From the sequence record PP328843.1: a stretch of 64,000 nt of DNA; one strand, written 5' to 3'. Shown piece after piece: positions 1-64,000 of this stretch (within the stretch, counting starts at the first letter, position 1; each line of letters opens with the position of its first letter). The stretch comes from Escherichia phage 215Ecol030PP. The notes under the pieces are model-generated. The model was not told the origin of the DNA, searched no databases, and saw only the letters and a list, made by a program, of their open reading frames with translations. Made by a program: the position numbers and the translations under genes.

Positions 1-41
1 TGACGCCTATATGGCTCTCGCAGAGGCCATGAAAAAAGCGT

Positions 42-49
42 TATAAATA
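42..49 (+). promoter_or_regulatory. T4-type late promoter (TATAAATA) upstream of gene 22
   Basis: Exact TATAAATA about 28 nt upstream of the gene 22 ATG. Confidence 0.55.
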
Positions 50-76
50 TTATTATCTAAACAACAGGACTACAAA

Positions 77-886
77 ATGCTTAAAGAACAACTGATTGCC
101 GAAGCGCAGAAAATTGATGCTTCCGTTGCTCTTGATAGTATTTTCGAATCAGTTAATATTTCTCCGGAAGCAAAAGAAACTTTCGGCACTGTATTCGAAG
201 CTACCGTCAAGCAGCACGCCGTTAAATTAGCTGAATCTCATATCGCTAAAATTGCTGAAAAAGCAGAAGAAGAAGTAGAAAAAAATAAAGAAGAAGCAGA
301 AGAAAAAGCTGAGAAGAAAATCGCTGAGCAAGCTTCTAAATTCCTTGACCATCTTGCAAAAGAATGGCTCACTGAAAATAAATTAGCAGTAGATAAAGGT
401 ATCAAAGCCGAACTGTTTGAATCCATGCTTGGTGGATTGAAAGAGCTCTTTGTTGAACACAACGTTGTTGTTCCAGAAGAATCAGTTGATGTTGTAGCTG
501 AAATGGAAGAAGAGCTGCAAGAACATAAAGAAGAATCAGCTCGTCTGTTCGAAGAACTCAATAAGCGTGACGCATATATCAATTATGTGCAGCGTGAAGT
601 GGCATTGAGCGAAAGTACTAAAGATCTGACTGAGTCTCAAAAAGAAAAAGTCTCTGCTCTGGTCGAAGGTATGGATTATTCAGATGCATTCTCAAGTAAA
701 TTGAGTGCAATCGTAGAAATGGTGAAGAAATCTAATAAAGATGAAAGCACTATTACTGAGAGTATAAATACTCCTGATACTGAAGCAGCCGGACTGAATT
801 TCGTCACTGAAGCTGTAGAAGATAAAGCTGCACCTGGTGCAGAAGATATTGTAAGTGTATATGCGAAAGTCGCATCTCGTTTCTAA
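77..886 (+). CDS. 22: Prohead core scaffold protein gp22
   Basis: 269 aa, acidic Glu/Lys-rich coiled-coil-like protein directly upstream of the major capsid gene; length and position match T4 gp22. Confidence 0.9.
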   Translation: MLKEQLIAEAQKIDASVALDSIFESVNISPEAKETFGTVFEATVKQHAVKLAESHIAKIAEKAEEEVEKNKEEAEEKAEKKIAEQASKFLDHLAKEWLTENKLAVDKGIKAELFESMLGGLKELFVEHNVVVPEESVDVVAEMEEELQEHKEESARLFEELNKRDAYINYVQREVALSESTKDLTESQKEKVSALVEGMDYSDAFSSKLSAIVEMVKKSNKDESTITESINTPDTEAAGLNFVTEAVEDKAAPGAEDIVSVYAKVASRF

Positions 887-904
887 TTTTAAAGGTTAAC
901 ACAA

Positions 905-2470
905 ATGACTATCAAAACTAAAGCTGAACTTTTGAACAAATGGAAGCCATTACTGGAAGGTGAAGGTTTACCGGAAATTGCTAATAGCAAACAAGCGATT
1001 ATCGCTAAAATCTTTGAAAACCAGGAAAAAGATTTCCAGACAGCTCCGGAATATAAAGACGAAAAAATTGCTCAGGCATTCGGTTCTTTCTTAACAGAAG
1101 CTGAAATCGGTGGTGACCACGGTTACAATGCTACCAACATCGCTGCAGGTCAGACTTCTGGCGCAGTAACTCAGATTGGCCCAGCTGTTATGGGTATGGT
1201 ACGTCGTGCTATTCCTAACCTGATTGCTTTCGATATTTGCGGTGTTCAGCCGATGAACAACCCGACTGGCCAGGTATTCGCAATGCGCGCAGTATATGGT
1301 AAAGACCCAATTGCTTCCGGTGCTAAAGAAGCATTCCACCCAATGTATGGTCCAGATGCAATGTTCTCTGGTCAGGGTGCTGCTAAGAAATTCCCAGCTC
1401 TGGCTGCTAGCACACAAACCACAGCAGGTGATATCTATACTCACTTCTTCCAGGACACTGGTACTGTGTATCTGCAAGCTTCTGCTCAAGTAACAATTAG
1501 TGCAAGCGCAACTGATGCAGATAAATTAGATGCTGAAATTAAGAAACAAATGGAAGCTGGTGCACTGGTAGAAATCGCTGAAGGTATGGCTACTTCTATC
1601 GCTGAACTTCAGGAAGGTTTTAACGGTTCTACCGATAACCCATGGAATGAAATGGGCTTCCGTATCGATAAACAAGTTATCGAAGCTAAATCTCGTCAGC
1701 TGAAAGCTGCTTACTCTATTGAATTAGCACAAGACCTTCGCGCTGTTCACGGTATGGATGCTGATGCTGAACTGTCTGGTATTCTGGCTACCGAAATCAT
1801 GCTGGAAATCAACCGCGAAGTTGTTGATTGGATTAACTACTCCGCACAGGTTGGTAAATCTGGTATGACCCTGACTCCGGGTTCTAAAGCTGGTGTATTT
1901 GACTTCCAGGACCCAATCGATATTCGTGGTGCTCGCTGGGCAGGTGAATCCTTTAAAGCTCTGTTGTTCCAGATTGACAAAGAAGCAGTTGAAATTGCTC
2001 GTCAGACCGGTCGTGGTGAAGGTAACTTCATTATCGCTTCCCGTAACGTAGTTAACGTTCTGGCTTCAGTTGATACTGGCATTTCTTATGCTGCACAGGG
2101 TCTGGCTACCGGCTTTAACACTGATACTACCAAGTCAGTATTTGCTGGTGTTCTGGGTGGTAAATACCGTGTATATATCGACCAGTATGCTAAACAGGAT
2201 TATTTCACTGTAGGTTATAAAGGTCCGAACGAAATGGATGCTGGTATTTACTATGCTCCATATGTAGCTCTGACTCCGCTGCGTGGTTCCGATCCGAAGA
2301 ACTTCCAACCGGTAATGGGATTCAAAACTCGTTACGGTATCGGTATCAACCCATTTGCAGAATCCGCTGCTCAGGCTCCGGCTTCTCGCATCCAGAGCGG
2401 TATGCCTTCTATTCTGAATAGCCTTGGTAAAAACGCTTACTTTAGACGTGTATATGTTAAAGGTATCTAA
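905..2470 (+). CDS. 23: Major capsid protein gp23
   Basis: 521 aa; sequence recognised as T4 gp23 (HK97-fold major head protein); SD GGTTAA upstream. Confidence 0.95.
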   Translation: MTIKTKAELLNKWKPLLEGEGLPEIANSKQAIIAKIFENQEKDFQTAPEYKDEKIAQAFGSFLTEAEIGGDHGYNATNIAAGQTSGAVTQIGPAVMGMVRRAIPNLIAFDICGVQPMNNPTGQVFAMRAVYGKDPIASGAKEAFHPMYGPDAMFSGQGAAKKFPALAASTQTTAGDIYTHFFQDTGTVYLQASAQVTISASATDADKLDAEIKKQMEAGALVEIAEGMATSIAELQEGFNGSTDNPWNEMGFRIDKQVIEAKSRQLKAAYSIELAQDLRAVHGMDADAELSGILATEIMLEINREVVDWINYSAQVGKSGMTLTPGSKAGVFDFQDPIDIRGARWAGESFKALLFQIDKEAVEIARQTGRGEGNFIIASRNVVNVLASVDTGISYAAQGLATGFNTDTTKSVFAGVLGGKYRVYIDQYAKQDYFTVGYKGPNEMDAGIYYAPYVALTPLRGSDPKNFQPVMGFKTRYGIGINPFAESAAQAPASRIQSGMPSILNSLGKNAYFRRVYVKGI

Positions 2471-5449: not shown

Positions 5450-6868
5450 TTATGGATAGGTATAGATGATACCAGTTTCTAAAGCAGTTTTATGAATGAT
5501 GTATCCATTACGCGATTCTTGGACATCAACTTCTGGATAATCTTTCATCATCTTCTGAAGAGTGTAACGATGCAGGTAGTATTTACTATCTGGATCTTCA
5601 GTTTTCCAATCTTTACCTTCTTCAGTCATTTTTTGGATTTCATCCATAACCCACCAACCGCACCAGATGTAAGCTGAGCTACGATGTGGAAGAGGATGAA
5701 CATAAGGTAATTCACCTTCTGGTTCCGGAGCAGCTTTATCAGTTACCTGAACTTGACCTTCTGCTGTAATAGTTTTGCTATCATAATCAGCAGCAGTAAC
5801 AGTTGCAGTAACTTCAATAGTTTGACTTCCAACAGATGATGTATCAACGGTGTATACATTAGTTGACCCTTCTACAGGAGAAGAATCTTTCTTCCATGAA
5901 TACGTAATTTGCGCTTCTTCCGGAGCATCCGTAACGTTAGCAGTAAATGTAGCCGAAGCATCTTGCTGAACATTAATAGAAGGAGGAGTCAATGTAACCT
6001 GTGGATTCATTGTCTTCTTATTAACTGTCAATGATACTTCATTAGAAGTAACTTCCTTTTCATTATAATTTTCTGCAGTTACTTGGGCTACGCATTTAAT
6101 TCTTTTTACTCCACTTGTAGTTGGAGTATAGTTAAATGTAGAGTTAGTTTCTCCACCAACTTGTGAATCATCTACATACCACTGATACGTAGCAGACGCT
6201 CCGTCAGGTTGAGAAGCTAATGCAGCAGTAAATTGAACCGGGGTTCCAATTACTCCAGCAGCAGGACTAGCAGGAGTTACTGCCAAGGTAGTTGTCTGTG
6301 TCTTTTTATTAACTGTCAATGATACTTCATTGGAAGTAACGCTCAGTGCATCATAATCTGTCGCAGTTACTTGAGCTACACACTTAATTTTTTTAACTCC
6401 GCTTGTAGTAGGAGTATAATTGAATGTAGCAGAAGTTGCTTCGCTCACAGGAGAACCGTCAACGTACCATTGATACGTAGCAGATGCGCCCGATGGCTGC
6501 GAAGCTAAAGCAGCAGTAAATTCAACAGCTGTTCCGATTACTCCTTCTGGAGGACTATTAGGAGTTACAGCTAAGGTAGTTGTCTGTGTCTTATTTTGAA
6601 CTGTGATAGTTGTACTAATTTCAGCTGTTTCAGCTTCAGCTTCTGGAACTGTATTTGTTGCAACCACTTTAATAGTCTTTTGACCAGCAGGTCCTTTTAA
6701 TACATAATTAAAGGTTGCTTCAGCTCCATCCTGTGGAACATTATCTACACTCCAAGCATAGGTAATAGTTCCACCTTCAGTTTGACCACTGGGTGCAGCA
6801 GTAAACTGCTTGGTTTCATCAATAACCCCCGTTGGTGTTTTAGGAGTTATATCAACTGTAAAAGTCAT
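5450..6868 (-). CDS. hoc: Highly immunogenic outer capsid protein Hoc, with an extra Ig-like domain
   Basis: 472 aa; tandem Ig-like repeats and conserved C-terminal capsid-binding region; T4 Hoc is 376 aa, so about 96 aa (one domain) longer. Confidence 0.85.
   Translation of the reverse strand: MTFTVDITPKTPTGVIDETKQFTAAPSGQTEGGTITYAWSVDNVPQDGAEATFNYVLKGPAGQKTIKVVATNTVPEAEAETAEISTTITVQNKTQTTTLAVTPNSPPEGVIGTAVEFTAALASQPSGASATYQWYVDGSPVSEATSATFNYTPTTSGVKKIKCVAQVTATDYDALSVTSNEVSLTVNKKTQTTTLAVTPASPAAGVIGTPVQFTAALASQPDGASATYQWYVDDSQVGGETNSTFNYTPTTSGVKRIKCVAQVTAENYNEKEVTSNEVSLTVNKKTMNPQVTLTPPSINVQQDASATFTANVTDAPEEAQITYSWKKDSSPVEGSTNVYTVDTSSVGSQTIEVTATVTAADYDSKTITAEGQVQVTDKAAPEPEGELPYVHPLPHRSSAYIWCGWWVMDEIQKMTEEGKDWKTEDPDSKYYLHRYTLQKMMKDYPEVDVQESRNGYIIHKTALETGIIYTYP
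6013..6588 (-). repeat. Imperfect tandem duplication (2 x about 288 bp) encoding two roughly 80 percent identical Ig-like domains of Hoc
   Basis: Protein segments QTTTLAVTP...SLTVNKKT occur twice consecutively; approximate boundaries. Confidence 0.7.
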
Positions 6869-17963: not shown

Positions 17964-17994
17964 TTTGTGTTCCTCATGTTATGTCAGTAAGACT

Positions 17995-18024
17995 ACTATA
18001 ACACAACACGAGGGACTTGTAAAC
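17995..18024 (-). promoter_or_regulatory. T4-type early promoter (GTTTAC, 18-nt spacer, TATAGT)
   Basis: Minus-strand -35 GTTTAC and -10 TATAGT; part of a 53-bp repeat shared with the alc promoter. Confidence 0.55.
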
Positions 18025-31502: not shown

Positions 31503-31530
31503 AAAGTCCTCATGTTATGTCAGTAAGACT

Positions 31531-31560
31531 ACTATAACACAACACGAAGGACTTGTAAAC
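31531..31560 (-). promoter_or_regulatory. T4-type early promoter (GTTTAC, 18 nt, TATAGT) for alc
   Basis: Minus-strand hexamers; 53-bp near-identical copy of the promoter at 17972-18024. Confidence 0.55.
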
Positions 31561-34999: not shown

Positions 35000-37264
35000 T
35001 CATAATTTACAGGATGAACAATCTTCAGCTTTTGGAGTTTCTATTTCATAATCATCAGTACCAGAACCATCACGGGTATTATGATAATAGAAATTTTTAA
35101 TGCCATAATACCATCCGTATAGCATGTCATCAATCATTATTGACATTGGAACCTTGCCTTTAGGGAAGATTTGGGGGTCATAGTATGTATTCGCCGAAGC
35201 TGATTGACAAACCCATTTCAGCATAATAGCTACCTGCGTAAGATAAGGTTTATTACCTTTCTTAGCTAATTTCCATGTATAATCATAGAGGTCTATGTTA
35301 TGCTCAATATTGGGCACGACTTGATTAAAGGAGCCCTCTTTTGATTCTTTAACAGAGACTGGTCCACGTGGAGGCTCGATACCGTTTGTACTGTTAGAAA
35401 CTTGGGAAGATGACTCACATGGCATAAGTGCTGATAATGTGCTATTACGGATGCCAAAGAGCTTAAGGTCTTCCCGCAGCGCCGACCAGTCACAAACGTA
35501 TTTTGGAGCTGCGATTTGGTCAATCTTTTTATTGTACCAGTCGATAGGTAGTTCGCCTCGAGACCAACGAGTGTCTGAATAATATTCGCAAGGTCCTTTT
35601 TCTTTGGCGAGCTTAATGGATGCTTTAATGAGTCCATACTGTAATCTCTCAAATAGTTCATGTGTTAAATCGTTAGCATCTTCATAAGAAGCAAAGTTAC
35701 TTGCCAGCCAAGCTGCATAGTTAGTAACACCTACACCGAGGTTACGACGCTTTTTAGCTTTTTCTGCTTCAGGAACTGGATATCCTTGGTAATCCAACAG
35801 ATTATCAAGAGCACGAACTTGAACTTCTGCCAATTCATTAATTTTATCTTGGTCTTGCCAGTCAAAATTATCTAGTACGAATGCGCTAAGGGTACACAAT
35901 CCAATTTCAGCATCAGGGCTATTCACATCATTTGTTGGAATAGCAATTTCACAACACAAGTTACTCTGACGAATAGGTGCCTTTTCACGAATAAACGGAG
36001 TATAGTTATTCGTATTATCAATGAACTGTACATAAATCCTTGCTGTTCCTGAACGTTCAGTCATGAGCAATTCAAATAGTTCACGGGCTTTAATACGCTT
36101 TTTACGAATATTAGGGTCTTTTTCTGCTGCTTCGTATAATTCACGGAAACGGTCTTGGTCTTTAAAATAAGAATAATAAAGCTCTCCACCCATTTCATGT
36201 GGACTGAACAAAGTAATGTAATCGTTCTTTCCAAATCGTTCCATCATCAAATCATTCAACTGAACACCATAATCCATATGACGGATGCGGTTTTCTTCTA
36301 CGCCTTTGTTATTTTTCAAAACGAGAAGATTTTCAACTTCCAAATGCCAAATAGGATAATAAGCAGTAGCAGCGCCGCCACGAATTCCACCCTGTGAACA
36401 TGATTTAACTGCAGTCTGAAAATGTTTCCAAAAAGGAATAACACCAGTATGGCGTACTTCACCTGTGCCAATCTTAGAACCTTCAGCACGAATCATACCA
36501 ACGTTAATACCAATTCCAGCGCGTTTAGAGATATATTCAACAATTGAAGCAGAAGCCTTATTGATAGACTTCAGTGAATCGCCTGCCTCAATAACAACGC
36601 ATGAACTAAACTGCCGAGTTGGAGTACGGCAACCAGCCATAATAGGAGTTGGTAATGAAATCTGTCGAGTAGATACCGCTTCATAAAAACGGATAACATG
36701 TTTTAATCTATCAACAGGTTCATCTTGATGCAATGCCATTCCAATAGTCATAAATGCAAACTGTGGAGTTTCATAAATTTGACCAGTGGTTTTATCTTTA
36801 ACTAGATATTTTTCTTTTAATTGCATCGCCCCGGAATAAGTAAATTCCATATCCCGCTCGTGCTTAATTTTTGATTCTAAAAATGTAATTTCTTCTGCTG
36901 AATATTTTGACAATAATTCAGGGTCATATTTACCTTCATTTACACAGTAAGAAATATGGTCAATAAATGAACGTGGTTCATATTGTCCGTAAACATGCTT
37001 ACGAAGAGCAAACATTAAACAGCGTGCAGCTACATATTGATAATCAGGCTCTTCAACCGAAATAGAATTCGCAGCAGCCTTAATGACAATAGTCTGAATA
37101 TCATCAGTTGTCATTCCATCACGGAGATAAGATTTAATATTTTCATATAATTCATAAGGATCTACTGATGTTCCCTCAGCTGCCCAAGATAAAACTTTAA
37201 TAATTTTTTGTGGGTCAAAGCTCTGAGAAACACCACTACTTTTGATAACATTAATTAATTGCAT
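35000..37264 (-). CDS. nrdA: Ribonucleotide reductase large subunit NrdA
   Basis: 754 aa; class Ia R1 with ATP-cone N-terminus; T4 NrdA length. Confidence 0.95.
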   Translation of the reverse strand: MQLINVIKSSGVSQSFDPQKIIKVLSWAAEGTSVDPYELYENIKSYLRDGMTTDDIQTIVIKAAANSISVEEPDYQYVAARCLMFALRKHVYGQYEPRSFIDHISYCVNEGKYDPELLSKYSAEEITFLESKIKHERDMEFTYSGAMQLKEKYLVKDKTTGQIYETPQFAFMTIGMALHQDEPVDRLKHVIRFYEAVSTRQISLPTPIMAGCRTPTRQFSSCVVIEAGDSLKSINKASASIVEYISKRAGIGINVGMIRAEGSKIGTGEVRHTGVIPFWKHFQTAVKSCSQGGIRGGAATAYYPIWHLEVENLLVLKNNKGVEENRIRHMDYGVQLNDLMMERFGKNDYITLFSPHEMGGELYYSYFKDQDRFRELYEAAEKDPNIRKKRIKARELFELLMTERSGTARIYVQFIDNTNNYTPFIREKAPIRQSNLCCEIAIPTNDVNSPDAEIGLCTLSAFVLDNFDWQDQDKINELAEVQVRALDNLLDYQGYPVPEAEKAKKRRNLGVGVTNYAAWLASNFASYEDANDLTHELFERLQYGLIKASIKLAKEKGPCEYYSDTRWSRGELPIDWYNKKIDQIAAPKYVCDWSALREDLKLFGIRNSTLSALMPCESSSQVSNSTNGIEPPRGPVSVKESKEGSFNQVVPNIEHNIDLYDYTWKLAKKGNKPYLTQVAIMLKWVCQSASANTYYDPQIFPKGKVPMSIMIDDMLYGWYYGIKNFYYHNTRDGSGTDDYEIETPKAEDCSSCKL

Positions 37265-37581
37265 AAGTCCTCAATTTGAAAATCGTCTTTAAACAGTCGG
37301 TTAACTATATGAGCTATTATATCACCATGACACGGCTTTGGTTTACATGTGCATCCTAGCCTCATTCCACGTAAAGGCTCTAAATGTGCTTTAGTTATTT
37401 CTCCGGATTTAATTCGACGTATAAAATCTTTTTTGAATAATTCAATGGCAGCCTCCCGGCTGCCAGCATCTTTACCGACGTAATTCCCCCAAAATGTACC
37501 ACGGTGAATATTAACATCAAAGTCGGATTTGTATTTATTCACTACCCGGCATAGACGGCCCGCGCGGTGATAATTCGGCAT
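37255..37581 (-). CDS. Hypothetical protein with [13 protein letters not shown] motif (DUF4326-like)
   Basis: 108-aa ORF overlapping the nrdA start. Confidence 0.5.
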
Positions 37582-37822: not shown

Positions 37823-38134
37823 TTACACCGCCATTTTTCCTTTCAAGACACCATGGGACTGATAATCTTTGAGAACGAAATCTTTAGGCCTGAGTTTAAG
37901 AATGTATTCCAATTGTTCTTTAGTAGAAAGATAGCGGAATTTATAAGGCAATCCGCCTATTACCAGTTCACAAAGCTCTTTAGGTTCACGACGCAAAATT
38001 TCTTTACATTGTTCCACGTGATTCATATAGATATGAGTATTACCACCAGAAAATATCAAATCTCCTGGAATAAGATTACACATCTTAGCTACAATATGAA
38101 CTAACGCAGCATATGATGCAATGTTGAATGGAAG
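37823..38134 (-). CDS. td: Thymidylate synthase, exon 2
   Basis: Encodes LPFNIASYAALVHIVAKMCNLIPGDLIFSGGNTHIYMNH...KGKMAV, the TS C-terminal half. Confidence 0.88.
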   Translation of the reverse strand, partial: LPFNIASYAALVHIVAKMCNLIPGDLIFSGGNTHIYMNHVEQCKEILRREPKELCELVIGGLPYKFRYLSTKEQLEYILKLRPKDFVLKDYQSHGVLKGKMAV

Positions 38135-38396
38135 CATTATGTTCAGATAAGGTCGTTAATCTTATCCCGGAATTATATCCAGCTGCATGTCACCATGCAG
38201 AGCAGACTATATCTCCAACTTGTTAAAGCAAGTTGTCTATCGTTTCGAGTCACTTGACCCTACTCCCTAAAGGGATAGTCGTTAGGCATTTAGGTAGAAC
38301 CAAAGTCCTACAATTTAGCACGGGATTGTCTACTAGAGAGGTTCCCCGTTTAGATAGATTACAAGTATAAGTCACCTTATACTCAGGCCTCAATTA
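38135..38396 (-). mobile_element. Group I self-splicing intron in td, ORF-less (262 nt)
   Basis: The intron begins UAAUUGAGGCCUGAGUAUAAGGUGACUUAUAC... and ends ...CUGAACAUAAUG, which I recognise as the T4 td intron core; no I-TevI ORF is present. Confidence 0.8.
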
Positions 38397-39086
38397 ACCC
38401 AAGAAAACATCTACTGAGCGTTGATACCACTGCAAATCCAAATAGCCATTACGCACATTAAACTGATAGAACATATGACAAGGCGGTAATGCCATATATT
38501 TAAGTTCAGCTGGATTCCATGCAGAAACAATTTGACGCCTATCATTTGGCAATTTTTTAATACGATCAATAACTTCTACAATTTGGTCTACACCGCCAAA
38601 ATCACGCCATTGTTTTCCATAAATTGGACCAAGTTCACCGCTATGGTATCCTAAATCTTTTGCTTGATTTTCGTAATTTTCATCCCAGACTGTTTTGCCT
38701 TGAATTAATGAATCATGCTGAATTTGGTCTACACCGCCAAAATCACGCCATTGTTTTCCATAAATTGGACCAAGTTCACCGCTATGGTATCCTAAATCTT
38801 TTGCTTGATTTTCGTAATTTTCATCCCAGACTGTTTTGCCTTGAATTAATGAATCATGCTGAATTAATCGTAAATCATTTACGTTAGTACTTCCTGATAA
38901 GAACCAAAGTAGCTCAGCAATGCAAGCTTTCCAAGCGAGCTTCTTAGTTGTTACCGCAGGAAAACCTTTAGTTAAATCCCAGCGTAATTTAGTACCGAAC
39001 AAAGCAATTGTTCCTGTGCCTGTTCGGTCATCGGTTTCATAGCCATTTTCAAAAATGTCTTTAATTAAATCTTGGTATTGTTTCAT
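38397..39086 (-). CDS. td: Thymidylate synthase, exon 1 (contains an in-frame 47-codon tandem duplication)
   Basis: MKQYQDLIKDIFENGYETDDRTGTGT... with catalytic ALPPCHMF; the segment QHDSLIQ...GGVDQI occurs twice in a row. Confidence 0.88.
38580..38861. repeat. Perfect direct tandem duplication, 2 x 141 bp, inside td exon 1
   Basis: Positions 38580-38720 and 38721-38861 are identical by eye; junction microhomology ATT. Confidence 0.9.
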
Positions 39087-39498: not shown

Positions 39499-40328
<830 letters not shown>

Positions 40329-41332: not shown

Positions 41333-41623
41333 TTATTGTTCAATCAGTCCCATGTAAAATTCTGCGTCTTCAGAATCCATGCCATCACAATATTCATTAG
41401 CCATAAAGCGGGTGAGGTCTTCAAGAGGACCTTCAATAACGATTTGAATACTCCAAAACTTAGAATCTTGTACGCTTGTGATACTAAGTTCAGGATAACG
41501 ATTACGAATAATCTCTTCAATATATTCAAAATCAACGATGTCAATATCAACTTTAGCCATATTATTTTCCTCTTTAATCATCAGCAGTATTGCCGATAGT
41601 TGTATAGTACCATGGAAGGACAA
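41333..41623 (-). CDS. Hypothetical protein
   Basis: 96-aa acidic ORF with AGAGGAAAATAAT ATG context. Confidence 0.5.
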
Positions 41624-41633
41624 GGATGTAAAC
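41604..41633 (-). promoter_or_regulatory. T4-type early promoter (GTTTAC, 18 nt, TACTAT) with upstream A/T-rich element
   Basis: Minus-strand hexamers; member of a repeated promoter cassette family (see findings). Confidence 0.5.
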
Positions 41634-41664
41634 CGTTTTGTGAAAAAATTTTTGAAATAAAAAA

Positions 41665-41683
41665 GGGGACCTCTAGGGTCCCC
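41665..41683 (-). terminator. Intrinsic terminator downstream of gene 32
   Basis: GGGGACC-CTAGA-GGTCCCC hairpin followed on the minus strand by TTTTTTATTTC. Confidence 0.6.
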
Positions 41684-41705
41684 AATTAATTAGTAATATA
41701 ATCTA

Positions 41706-58220: not shown

Positions 58221-58269
58221 TTTTTGTATCTCCGGGTTGTTTGTTTCAGTTCATTTATTTGATAGTTGT

Positions 58270-58299
58270 ATAGTACCACAGTATGCTTTGGTTGTAAAC
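58270..58299 (-). promoter_or_regulatory. T4-type early promoter (GTTTAC, 18 nt, TACTAT)
   Basis: Minus-strand hexamers; member of the repeated promoter cassette family. Confidence 0.5.
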
Positions 58300-58330
58300 C
58301 GTTTTGTGAAAAAATTTTTGAAATAAAAAA

Positions 58331-58350
58331 GGGAGAGCCGAGGCTCTCCC
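58331..58350 (-). terminator. Intrinsic terminator downstream of the gene 52 operon
   Basis: GGGAGAGCC-GA-GGCTCTCCC hairpin followed on the minus strand by TTTTTTATTTC. Confidence 0.55.
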
Positions 58351-58355
58351 TAAAA

Positions 58356-58505
58356 TTACTGCATGACTGTGATAACTGTCATGATAACACGTTGAATTCC
58401 GAACGCAAGAAGACCTCCTGCTACGGCAGGAACAACACCTAAACCCGCCAGTAAAATGCCACCAGATACTAATGCAGCGCTTGTGATACCAATGAATGGA
58501 CTCAT
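58356..58505 (-). CDS. Small hydrophobic protein (49 aa)
   Basis: Manually translated ORF MSPFIGITSAALVSGGILLAGLGVV... overlapping the gene 52 stop (ATGA); below the ORF-track cutoff. Confidence 0.35.
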   Translation of the reverse strand: MSPFIGITSAALVSGGILLAGLGVVPAVAGGLLAFGIQRVIMTVITVMQ

Positions 58506-61889: not shown

Positions 61890-61916
61890 TTTTACTCCTC
61901 CGTAGCTGATAGTTGT

Positions 61917-61946
61917 ATAGTACCACAGTCCTTGTGGTATGTAAAC
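61917..61946 (-). promoter_or_regulatory. T4-type early promoter (GTTTAC, 18 nt, TACTAT)
   Basis: Minus-strand hexamers upstream of ORF 61626-61889. Confidence 0.5.
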
Positions 61947-61965
61947 TGTTTTGTGAAAAAATTTT

Positions 61966-62523
61966 TTAAATGGAAAGATACCATCCGTTGTAGTTGCTTT
62001 TTCTTACAACCTTACGAAGGTCTTCTCTGTCACCGATGAACTTCGGAGTGTACTGGATGACACCTGGATGAATTTCTTTAGTGTTGAATATAATTATACA
62101 GTCAGCGACTTGATGATTTAGAATGGGCCCTAGATTTATTCCAGAACCATATGGATACTCTCCGCTGCATCCGGTTGTTACCGAAATCCAACGTGAGTCA
62201 GTTTGATGTGTCTTAACTTCTACACGAAGCCCACAGTATTTTGGATGCGCCAAAACATCCCATGCATATGTGTACGGATCATCGACATCTTCTTGACCTT
62301 TGTTAACATACCCGCTCAGCCAATCTGCTACAAAAAATTCTGCGTACACAGCGATACGGCATCTTTCGATAACTTCTGCCTTATCTTGATTTGGGTTTTG
62401 TTTTAAAGAGTATCTTGCTGTATCAGCAATTTTGGCCTTCATTTCACTAGTCAAGTCACTGTTCGATAGGGTAAATGTCGGAATCTGAAATAGTCTCTGT
62501 AACCCAGGATTCGTTTTCTGCAT
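61966..62523 (-). CDS. denB: Putative endonuclease IV (DenB)
   Basis: 185 aa; length and position upstream of ndd and downstream of rIIB match T4 denB; assignment by synteny. Confidence 0.6.
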   Translation of the reverse strand: MQKTNPGLQRLFQIPTFTLSNSDLTSEMKAKIADTARYSLKQNPNQDKAEVIERCRIAVYAEFFVADWLSGYVNKGQEDVDDPYTYAWDVLAHPKYCGLRVEVKTHQTDSRWISVTTGCSGEYPYGSGINLGPILNHQVADCIIIFNTKEIHPGVIQYTPKFIGDREDLRKVVRKSNYNGWYLSI

Positions 62524-63050: not shown

Positions 63051-63989
63051 TTATTTAAATTGTTCAGTAACGTCTTCAACTACTTCGTATTGGCAGGTAC
63101 GCATTTTAGCATCGTTGTAATCAATCGGAATTGATACTACATCACGCGGATGTACTTTAACTTTTACAACTCGACTGGTTGAACTGCCAAAGTGACGAAT
63201 ATAAGATTTAGAACACACATGCAGACCACGAGAACAAGTTTGTGTATCATCGTCATTCACACGAGTACGTGGCATTTTAACTACTTTACCAGGACTGTTA
63301 TCAAAGGTGTTTGAGTGACAGTCAAAGTAGTTGTCACGAACTACTTTCCAAGCATAGAAGTAACCATCTTCGGTGATTTCAATATCGTTTGCTACCAAGA
63401 AATCAAAGAGTCGAGATACCGCTTTTTGGCTTGGGTTTTCCAACAGATTTTCCAAGAACGGAAAATAAAATTCAAAGTTTTCACCTTTTTCCATCGAATC
63501 GAGAATACGATCAACTAAACCAGACCGCAATTCAATATTTTGATAGAACAAGCTTCCACCTTCAATTCGAACATCACCGGAAATATATTTTTCAACAGCG
63601 CGACGAACGTTAATTTTTTGCGCAGCTTCTTCCAGCTTATCCGCTACAAGCAGATTAAGAATTTCCTGGAAGTTTGAATGAGTATTAGGAGTTGCGTTAT
63701 AAGTTACACCGTCAACAGTAATTGAAATGAATTTTTTAGATGCATTCCAAATAATGTCAGATTTAGCAACTGGAGCAATAACTGCATCGCTATTAACTTT
63801 AACTGTAATATCACCGCTAATAGTAACTTTAGAGCGTTTAGCTTCTTCAGCATTTTTCAAAACACGACGAATTGTGTCAACCGATACACCTTGCCAATCA
63901 GCCAATTCCTGTTGGGTGTAATTACCACTTGAATACAATTTAACAATTTCAGCTTGTTCGTTTTTGGTCAGGCATTTAATATTGTACAT
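63051..63989 (-). CDS. rIIB: rIIB membrane-associated lysis-inhibition protein
   Basis: 312 aa; sequence recognised as T4 rIIB. Confidence 0.93.
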   Translation of the reverse strand: MYNIKCLTKNEQAEIVKLYSSGNYTQQELADWQGVSVDTIRRVLKNAEEAKRSKVTISGDITVKVNSDAVIAPVAKSDIIWNASKKFISITVDGVTYNATPNTHSNFQEILNLLVADKLEEAAQKINVRRAVEKYISGDVRIEGGSLFYQNIELRSGLVDRILDSMEKGENFEFYFPFLENLLENPSQKAVSRLFDFLVANDIEITEDGYFYAWKVVRDNYFDCHSNTFDNSPGKVVKMPRTRVNDDDTQTCSRGLHVCSKSYIRHFGSSTSRVVKVKVHPRDVVSIPIDYNDAKMRTCQYEVVEDVTEQFK

Positions 63990-64000
63990 AATTTTCCTTA

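Follow-up and report, generated by a model that had tools for sequence, protein, structure and literature searches.

A perfect 141-bp tandem repeat in the td gene of a T4-like phage record is probably an assembly artefact

The thymidylate synthase gene td of Escherichia phage 215Ecol030PP (PP328843.1) carries a perfect, directly abutting 141-bp repeat within the window, the stretch of 64,000 nucleotides analysed here. We conclude that this repeat is probably an artefact of assembly or circularisation that does not exist in the phage DNA. This reading is favoured by a period of exactly 141 with zero mismatches, by a record that had been rotated, and by a junction seen nowhere else. A biological duplication is not established and is probably the wrong explanation. 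The coordinates of the features are collected in Table 1.

Table 1. Features of the td region and of the window end
Feature	Position	Strand	Remarks
td exon 2	37823..38134	-	103 codons + stop; PF00303 profile positions 176-266
td group I intron	38135..38396	-	262 nt, ORF-less; Rfam RF00028
td exon 1	38397..39086	-	690 nt = 549 + 141; 549 nt in relatives; PF00303 match
Repeat copy 1	38580..38720	-	promoter-distal; encodes second QHDS...VDQI peptide
Repeat copy 2	38721..38861	-	encodes first QHDS...VDQI peptide of the product
AATT junction microhomology	38862..38865		repeats the unit's first 4 nt (38580-38583, 38721-38724)
frd (dihydrofolate reductase)	39499..40083	-	upstream neighbour of td; T4 order frd-td-nrdA normal
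rIIB and 11-nt rIIB-rIIA spacer	rIIB 63051-63989, spacer 63990-64000	-	last ORF, window end

String comparison revealed that the two copies are identical at 141 of 141 nucleotides and directly abut each other. Tandem Repeats Finder returned a period of 141, 2.0 copies, 100% matches and a score of 572, and an independent repeat search of the window recovered the same pair (family D1). The identity at period 141 in fact runs over 145 nt (38580-38724 against 38721-38865), which leaves a 4-nt AATT microhomology. The junction reads TGAATCATGCTG followed directly by AATTTGGTCTACACC, and the 27-mer across it is TGAATCATGCTGAATTTGGTCTACACC. These results bear out the perfect adjacent duplication claimed in a sequence-only reading of this DNA, including the full identity of the copies on which that reading had made its claim depend. 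Its in-frame 47-codon repeat in td exon 1, upstream of the PCH catalytic motif, likewise holds, with the correction that the gene lies on the minus strand. The junction microhomology, given there as ATT of 3-4 nt, is present and measures four nucleotides, AATT.

The td repeat is the sole perfect long repeat within the window, so a chance origin is excluded, and no further repeat of at least 141 nt at high identity was found in these 64 kb. Apart from the td repeat, the window has a single tandem array, a 288-nt (96-aa) in-frame repeat of 79% identity at 6011-6604, which lies in a minus-strand gene (5450-6868) for a 472-aa Hoc-like outer capsid protein and apparently adds an extra Ig-like domain. 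This hoc repeat is a genuinely old duplication, in contrast to the zero-divergence repeat of td. In addition, the window contains dispersed intergenic repeats of 54-98 nt with 60-98% identity (41595-41692, 58261-58358, 61908-62005, 17971-18024 and 31507-31560); on the minus strand they resemble T4 early-promoter modules (GTTTAC ... TATAGTA/TACTAT) beside GC-rich terminator hairpins.

The DNA belongs to a T4-like phage (Tequatrovirus), and the closest relatives in a set of 50,697 phage records show ~95-97% identity to it. Downstream of td lie DUF5496, DUF4326 and nrdA, as in T4. The DUF4326 ORF, encoding 108 residues on the minus strand (37255-37581), sits between td and nrdA and overlaps the start of nrdA with its 3' end; the ~270-nt stretch matching it in phages JE01 and MLP2 carries no annotation.

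The reading frame is preserved through the repeat, and the spliced Td product has 333 residues, compared to 286 for T4 Td (PDB 1TIS). The repeated peptide, QHDSLIQGKTVWDENYENQAKDLGYHSGELGPIYGKQWRDFGGVDQI, corresponds to residues 76-122 of 1TIS. Residues 1-122 and 123-333 of the product match residues 1-122 and 76-286 of 1TIS, respectively, so that residues 76-122 occur twice. Exon 1 matches PF00303 in two stretches (E-value 3.2e-70), and the product is clearly a member of this family, with scores of 236.7 and 84.3 bits where the cut-off is 24.3; it does not form a single uninterrupted copy of the thymidylate synthase fold, as the two stretches aligned with 1TIS overlap there. The catalytic cysteine is retained in the PCH motif (ALPPCHMF), which follows ~30 residues past the duplicated block. 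By homology to the E. coli and Lactobacillus casei enzymes, we take this block to comprise the WDE loop of the folate site, the helix with LGPIYGKQWR and the opening turn of the helix after it.

The intron between the two exons sits at the insertion site of the T4 td intron, and its splice junctions align with those of JE01 and MLP2. It matches the full model of RF00028 (model positions 1-253), scoring 65.5 bits where the gathering threshold is 50. The ORF of the homing endonuclease I-TevI is absent; alignment with JE01 and MLP2 and the predicted fold indicate that a GUAGGAC-UUUG-GUUCUAC hairpin (P6a) takes the place of this ORF and its loop. The td intron of T4 has 1016 nt and bears the ORF, and that of JE01 carries I-TevI as well, unlike the form found here. 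The same ORF-less form is present in phages PD112, CE1 and BYEP01, with 97-98.5% identity over the deletion junction, and MLP2 and HP3 possess a different ORF-less intron of a 314-nt class, ~54 nt longer. These two forms suggest that the homing endonuclease gene was lost at least twice independently.

The comparison with relatives that the earlier reading had proposed gave a uniform result: in DNA alignments, PD112, JE01 and MLP2 each have a single copy of the segment. Megablast with a 44-nt query that has the junction at its centre, and so seeds a 28-nt word only where the junction exists, gave no match in the 50,697 phage records. The junction peptide, GVDQI/QHDS, searched as a degenerate pattern, had zero occurrences in IMG/VR, in GTDB (one genome per species) and in the JGI metagenomes, and megablast with the td region had no match at all in collections of E. 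coli genomes and plasmids; the junction was thus met independently in none of these sets. A 35-mer specific to the ORF-less intron of this DNA likewise had no occurrence in IMG/VR, the JGI metagenomes and the GTDB genomes, and look-ups of the exact exon-1 product, NrdA and Frd returned nothing. Among the Td homologues in a collection of 5.8 billion proteins, the best 120 of 7,996 scoring hits are all 286-287 residues long.

The end of the window offers evidence on how the record was handled. Its last letters, attgtacat followed by aattttcctta, correspond to the end of the T4 genome (168903) and then to T4 positions 1-11, and T4 rIIA occupies 12..2189. The window hence stops 1 nt short of the position at which the rIIA CDS starts in T4. 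As this end falls at the rIIB-rIIA spacer and not at a random point, the window must be the final 64 kb of a record rotated to begin at the rIIA CDS. A rotation or re-joining after assembly is what an artefact in the interior of the record needs, and a re-oriented record makes available a step that moves an untrimmed overlap inwards.

T4-like genomes are circularly permuted and terminally redundant, and the default k series of MEGAHIT ends at 141. We propose that, from such a circularly permuted genome, a de Bruijn graph assembler would close a loop and output it in linear form, with the first k bases of the contig appearing again at its end; at the final step of MEGAHIT, k = 141. If such a contig were opened at rIIA and its old ends fused with the overlap still in place, an arrangement S[0:k]S[0:k] would remain where those ends met. 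These ends would have fallen in td exon 1, abutting at 38720/38721 with an ambiguity of 4 nt. We infer an assembly made with MEGAHIT, or with a different assembler at k = 141, and an overlap that stayed untrimmed. The repeat length equals the final k of MEGAHIT, and the copies are perfectly identical and abutting, as an artefact of terminal overlap requires. Moreover, since the window holds no other long exact repeat, the genome would form one simple loop in a graph at k = 141.

Overlaps of this kind are documented. Circular contigs named 'k141_...' from MEGAHIT 1.2.9 have end overlaps of exactly 141 bp, with 499 bp becoming 358 bp when merged (bioRxiv 10.1101/2023.06.07.544120). A 141-bp adjacent duplicate without read support has been reported for a circular MEGAHIT assembly, and --k-max 141 is a documented usage of the program. 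Similarly, artificial overlaps of 127 bp in phage contigs from SPAdes are a recognised artefact and routinely removed (PMC5923482).

The principal evidence against an artefact is the AATT microhomology, which a pure k-overlap would not be expected to yield. With a match probability of 0.27, taken from the local base composition, a chance extension of a pure k-overlap by at least 4 nt is expected at ~0.02. The coincidence in length is somewhat weakened because a k of 55, 77, 99, 127 or 141 would each have been suspicious, which brings its weight down from several hundred-fold to perhaps a hundred-fold. In the weighing, the length contributes a ratio of ~100 for the artefact, the microhomology ~20 against it, and the rotation a small gain, with priors roughly even. 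From these terms together, the artefact emerges as the probable origin, and a real duplication as distinctly less probable. The sequence-only reading had named slippage or an assembly artefact as the options; the artefact has since gained support from the length of 141, the re-orientation and the lack of any other instance of the junction in the collections searched. That reading had also taken the microhomology as the signature of slippage, and the 4-nt AATT remains the best argument for slippage, but the artefact is weighed as the likelier of the two.

The foremost alternative, which we regard as unlikely, is a genuine tandem duplication that the phage acquired very recently. It would have arisen by mispairing during replication, with the nascent strand re-annealing from one AATT to another AATT 141 nt upstream, or by unequal recombination between sister genomes. 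A bottleneck at plaque purification would then have fixed the duplicated allele, and the dispensability of td would let a damaged or altered Td persist for a while; td is dispensable on thyA+ hosts, as established by T4 genetics. The AATT lies exactly at the junction, and real slippage duplications usually have such a short direct repeat at their endpoints. Both AATTs, 141 nt apart, occur in the single-copy relatives too. The duplication is in frame as well, although the kept frame is uninformative given that 141 equals 3 x 47. By contrast, a natural event has no reason for a length of 141, for which, as for any one length, only ~0.2% is expected, and no second occurrence of the junction came to light in any collection searched. 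Homologous recombination in T4 needs roughly 50 bp, so the repeat, being longer, would revert readily if it were real; a perfect direct repeat of 141 bp exceeds this minimum and should collapse quickly. The zero divergence between the copies gives no sign that the repeat was ever maintained, and a real allele would have to be very young.

The position of the repeat in the enzyme is also in favour of a genuine duplication. The duplicated segment covers the enzyme's variable 'small domain'. In BLASTP, the L. casei enzyme is matched by WDE of copy 1 and LGPIYGKQWR of copy 2, and the surplus 47 residues fall on the natural insert of ~50 residues in the L. casei protein. In agreement with BLASTP, phmmer aligned L. 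casei (1LCA-type) chains in a single stretch. Since the surplus aligns to this natural insert, an extra loop is not obviously lethal to the fold, and it is conceivable that Td could tolerate a looped-out extra copy. The fuller version of this alternative, a just-born microhomology-mediated duplication that enlarges the Td small domain to the L. casei length and leaves an enzyme that may be active or altered in its regulation, is in our view doubtful.

The remaining readings are very improbable: an older, selected domain duplication giving Td a new function has a precedent in the hoc duplication fixed in the same phage lineage, but is contradicted by 0 differences in 141 nt, against 79% identity in the hoc repeat and a 3-5% difference from relatives across the region, and by the absence of the repeat from all relatives compared; and a pipeline wrap-around of a circular record is contradicted because the record end, at the end of the window, adjoins rIIA and not td. 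Cleavage or homing by I-TevI was likewise rejected as a cause, because its site, which in T4 td is the exon junction, lies ~180 nt downstream of the block and the intron has no I-TevI ORF.

If the repeat is an artefact, as we consider probable, it is a matter of data hygiene only: td is 141 nt too long, its 230-aa exon-1 product is mis-predicted, the genome is inflated by 141 bp, and trimming is due. As a rule for scanning, where a circular or circularly permuted genome has been re-oriented, any perfect tandem repeat measuring 141, 127, 99, 77 or 55 nt is to be presumed an assembler overlap unless reads show the contrary. Should the td repeat be real, its interest would be modest: a fresh in-frame duplication in a well-studied enzyme, at a place where the family tolerates natural insertions, and a natural snapshot of how large insertions arise in thymidylate synthases. 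Even then, the allele would be unstable and probably deleterious, in a gene that the phage can do without.

Compared to known systems, the gene is closest to T4 td, with which it shares the layout of exon 1, intron and exon 2, the site of intron insertion and the frd-td-nrdA surroundings; once one copy is deleted, the protein has ~95% identity to T4 Td, and one difference is the doubling of residues 76-122 in exon 1, another the short ORF-less intron. The small-domain insert of L. casei thymidylate synthase occupies the same place as the surplus, between the WDE(W) and LGxxYGxQWR motifs. However, that insert has an unrelated sequence and a folded structure of its own, whereas the surplus of the present protein copies elements of the core and active site. 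Microhomology-mediated tandem duplications, such as those of T4 rII and the engineered ones of T4 lysozyme, are likewise head-to-tail, in frame and marked by a short repeat at the junction, but the td repeat differs from them in a length that coincides with an assembler constant. The terminal k-mer overlaps of MEGAHIT (141 bp) and SPAdes (127 bp) share with the td repeat a perfect repeat equal to k, a genome that assembles as a circle and a re-oriented record; the td repeat differs in being internal, which needs rotation without trimming, and in its four extra matching nucleotides. Both candidate classes, overlap artefacts of assemblers and microhomology-mediated duplications, are already well known.
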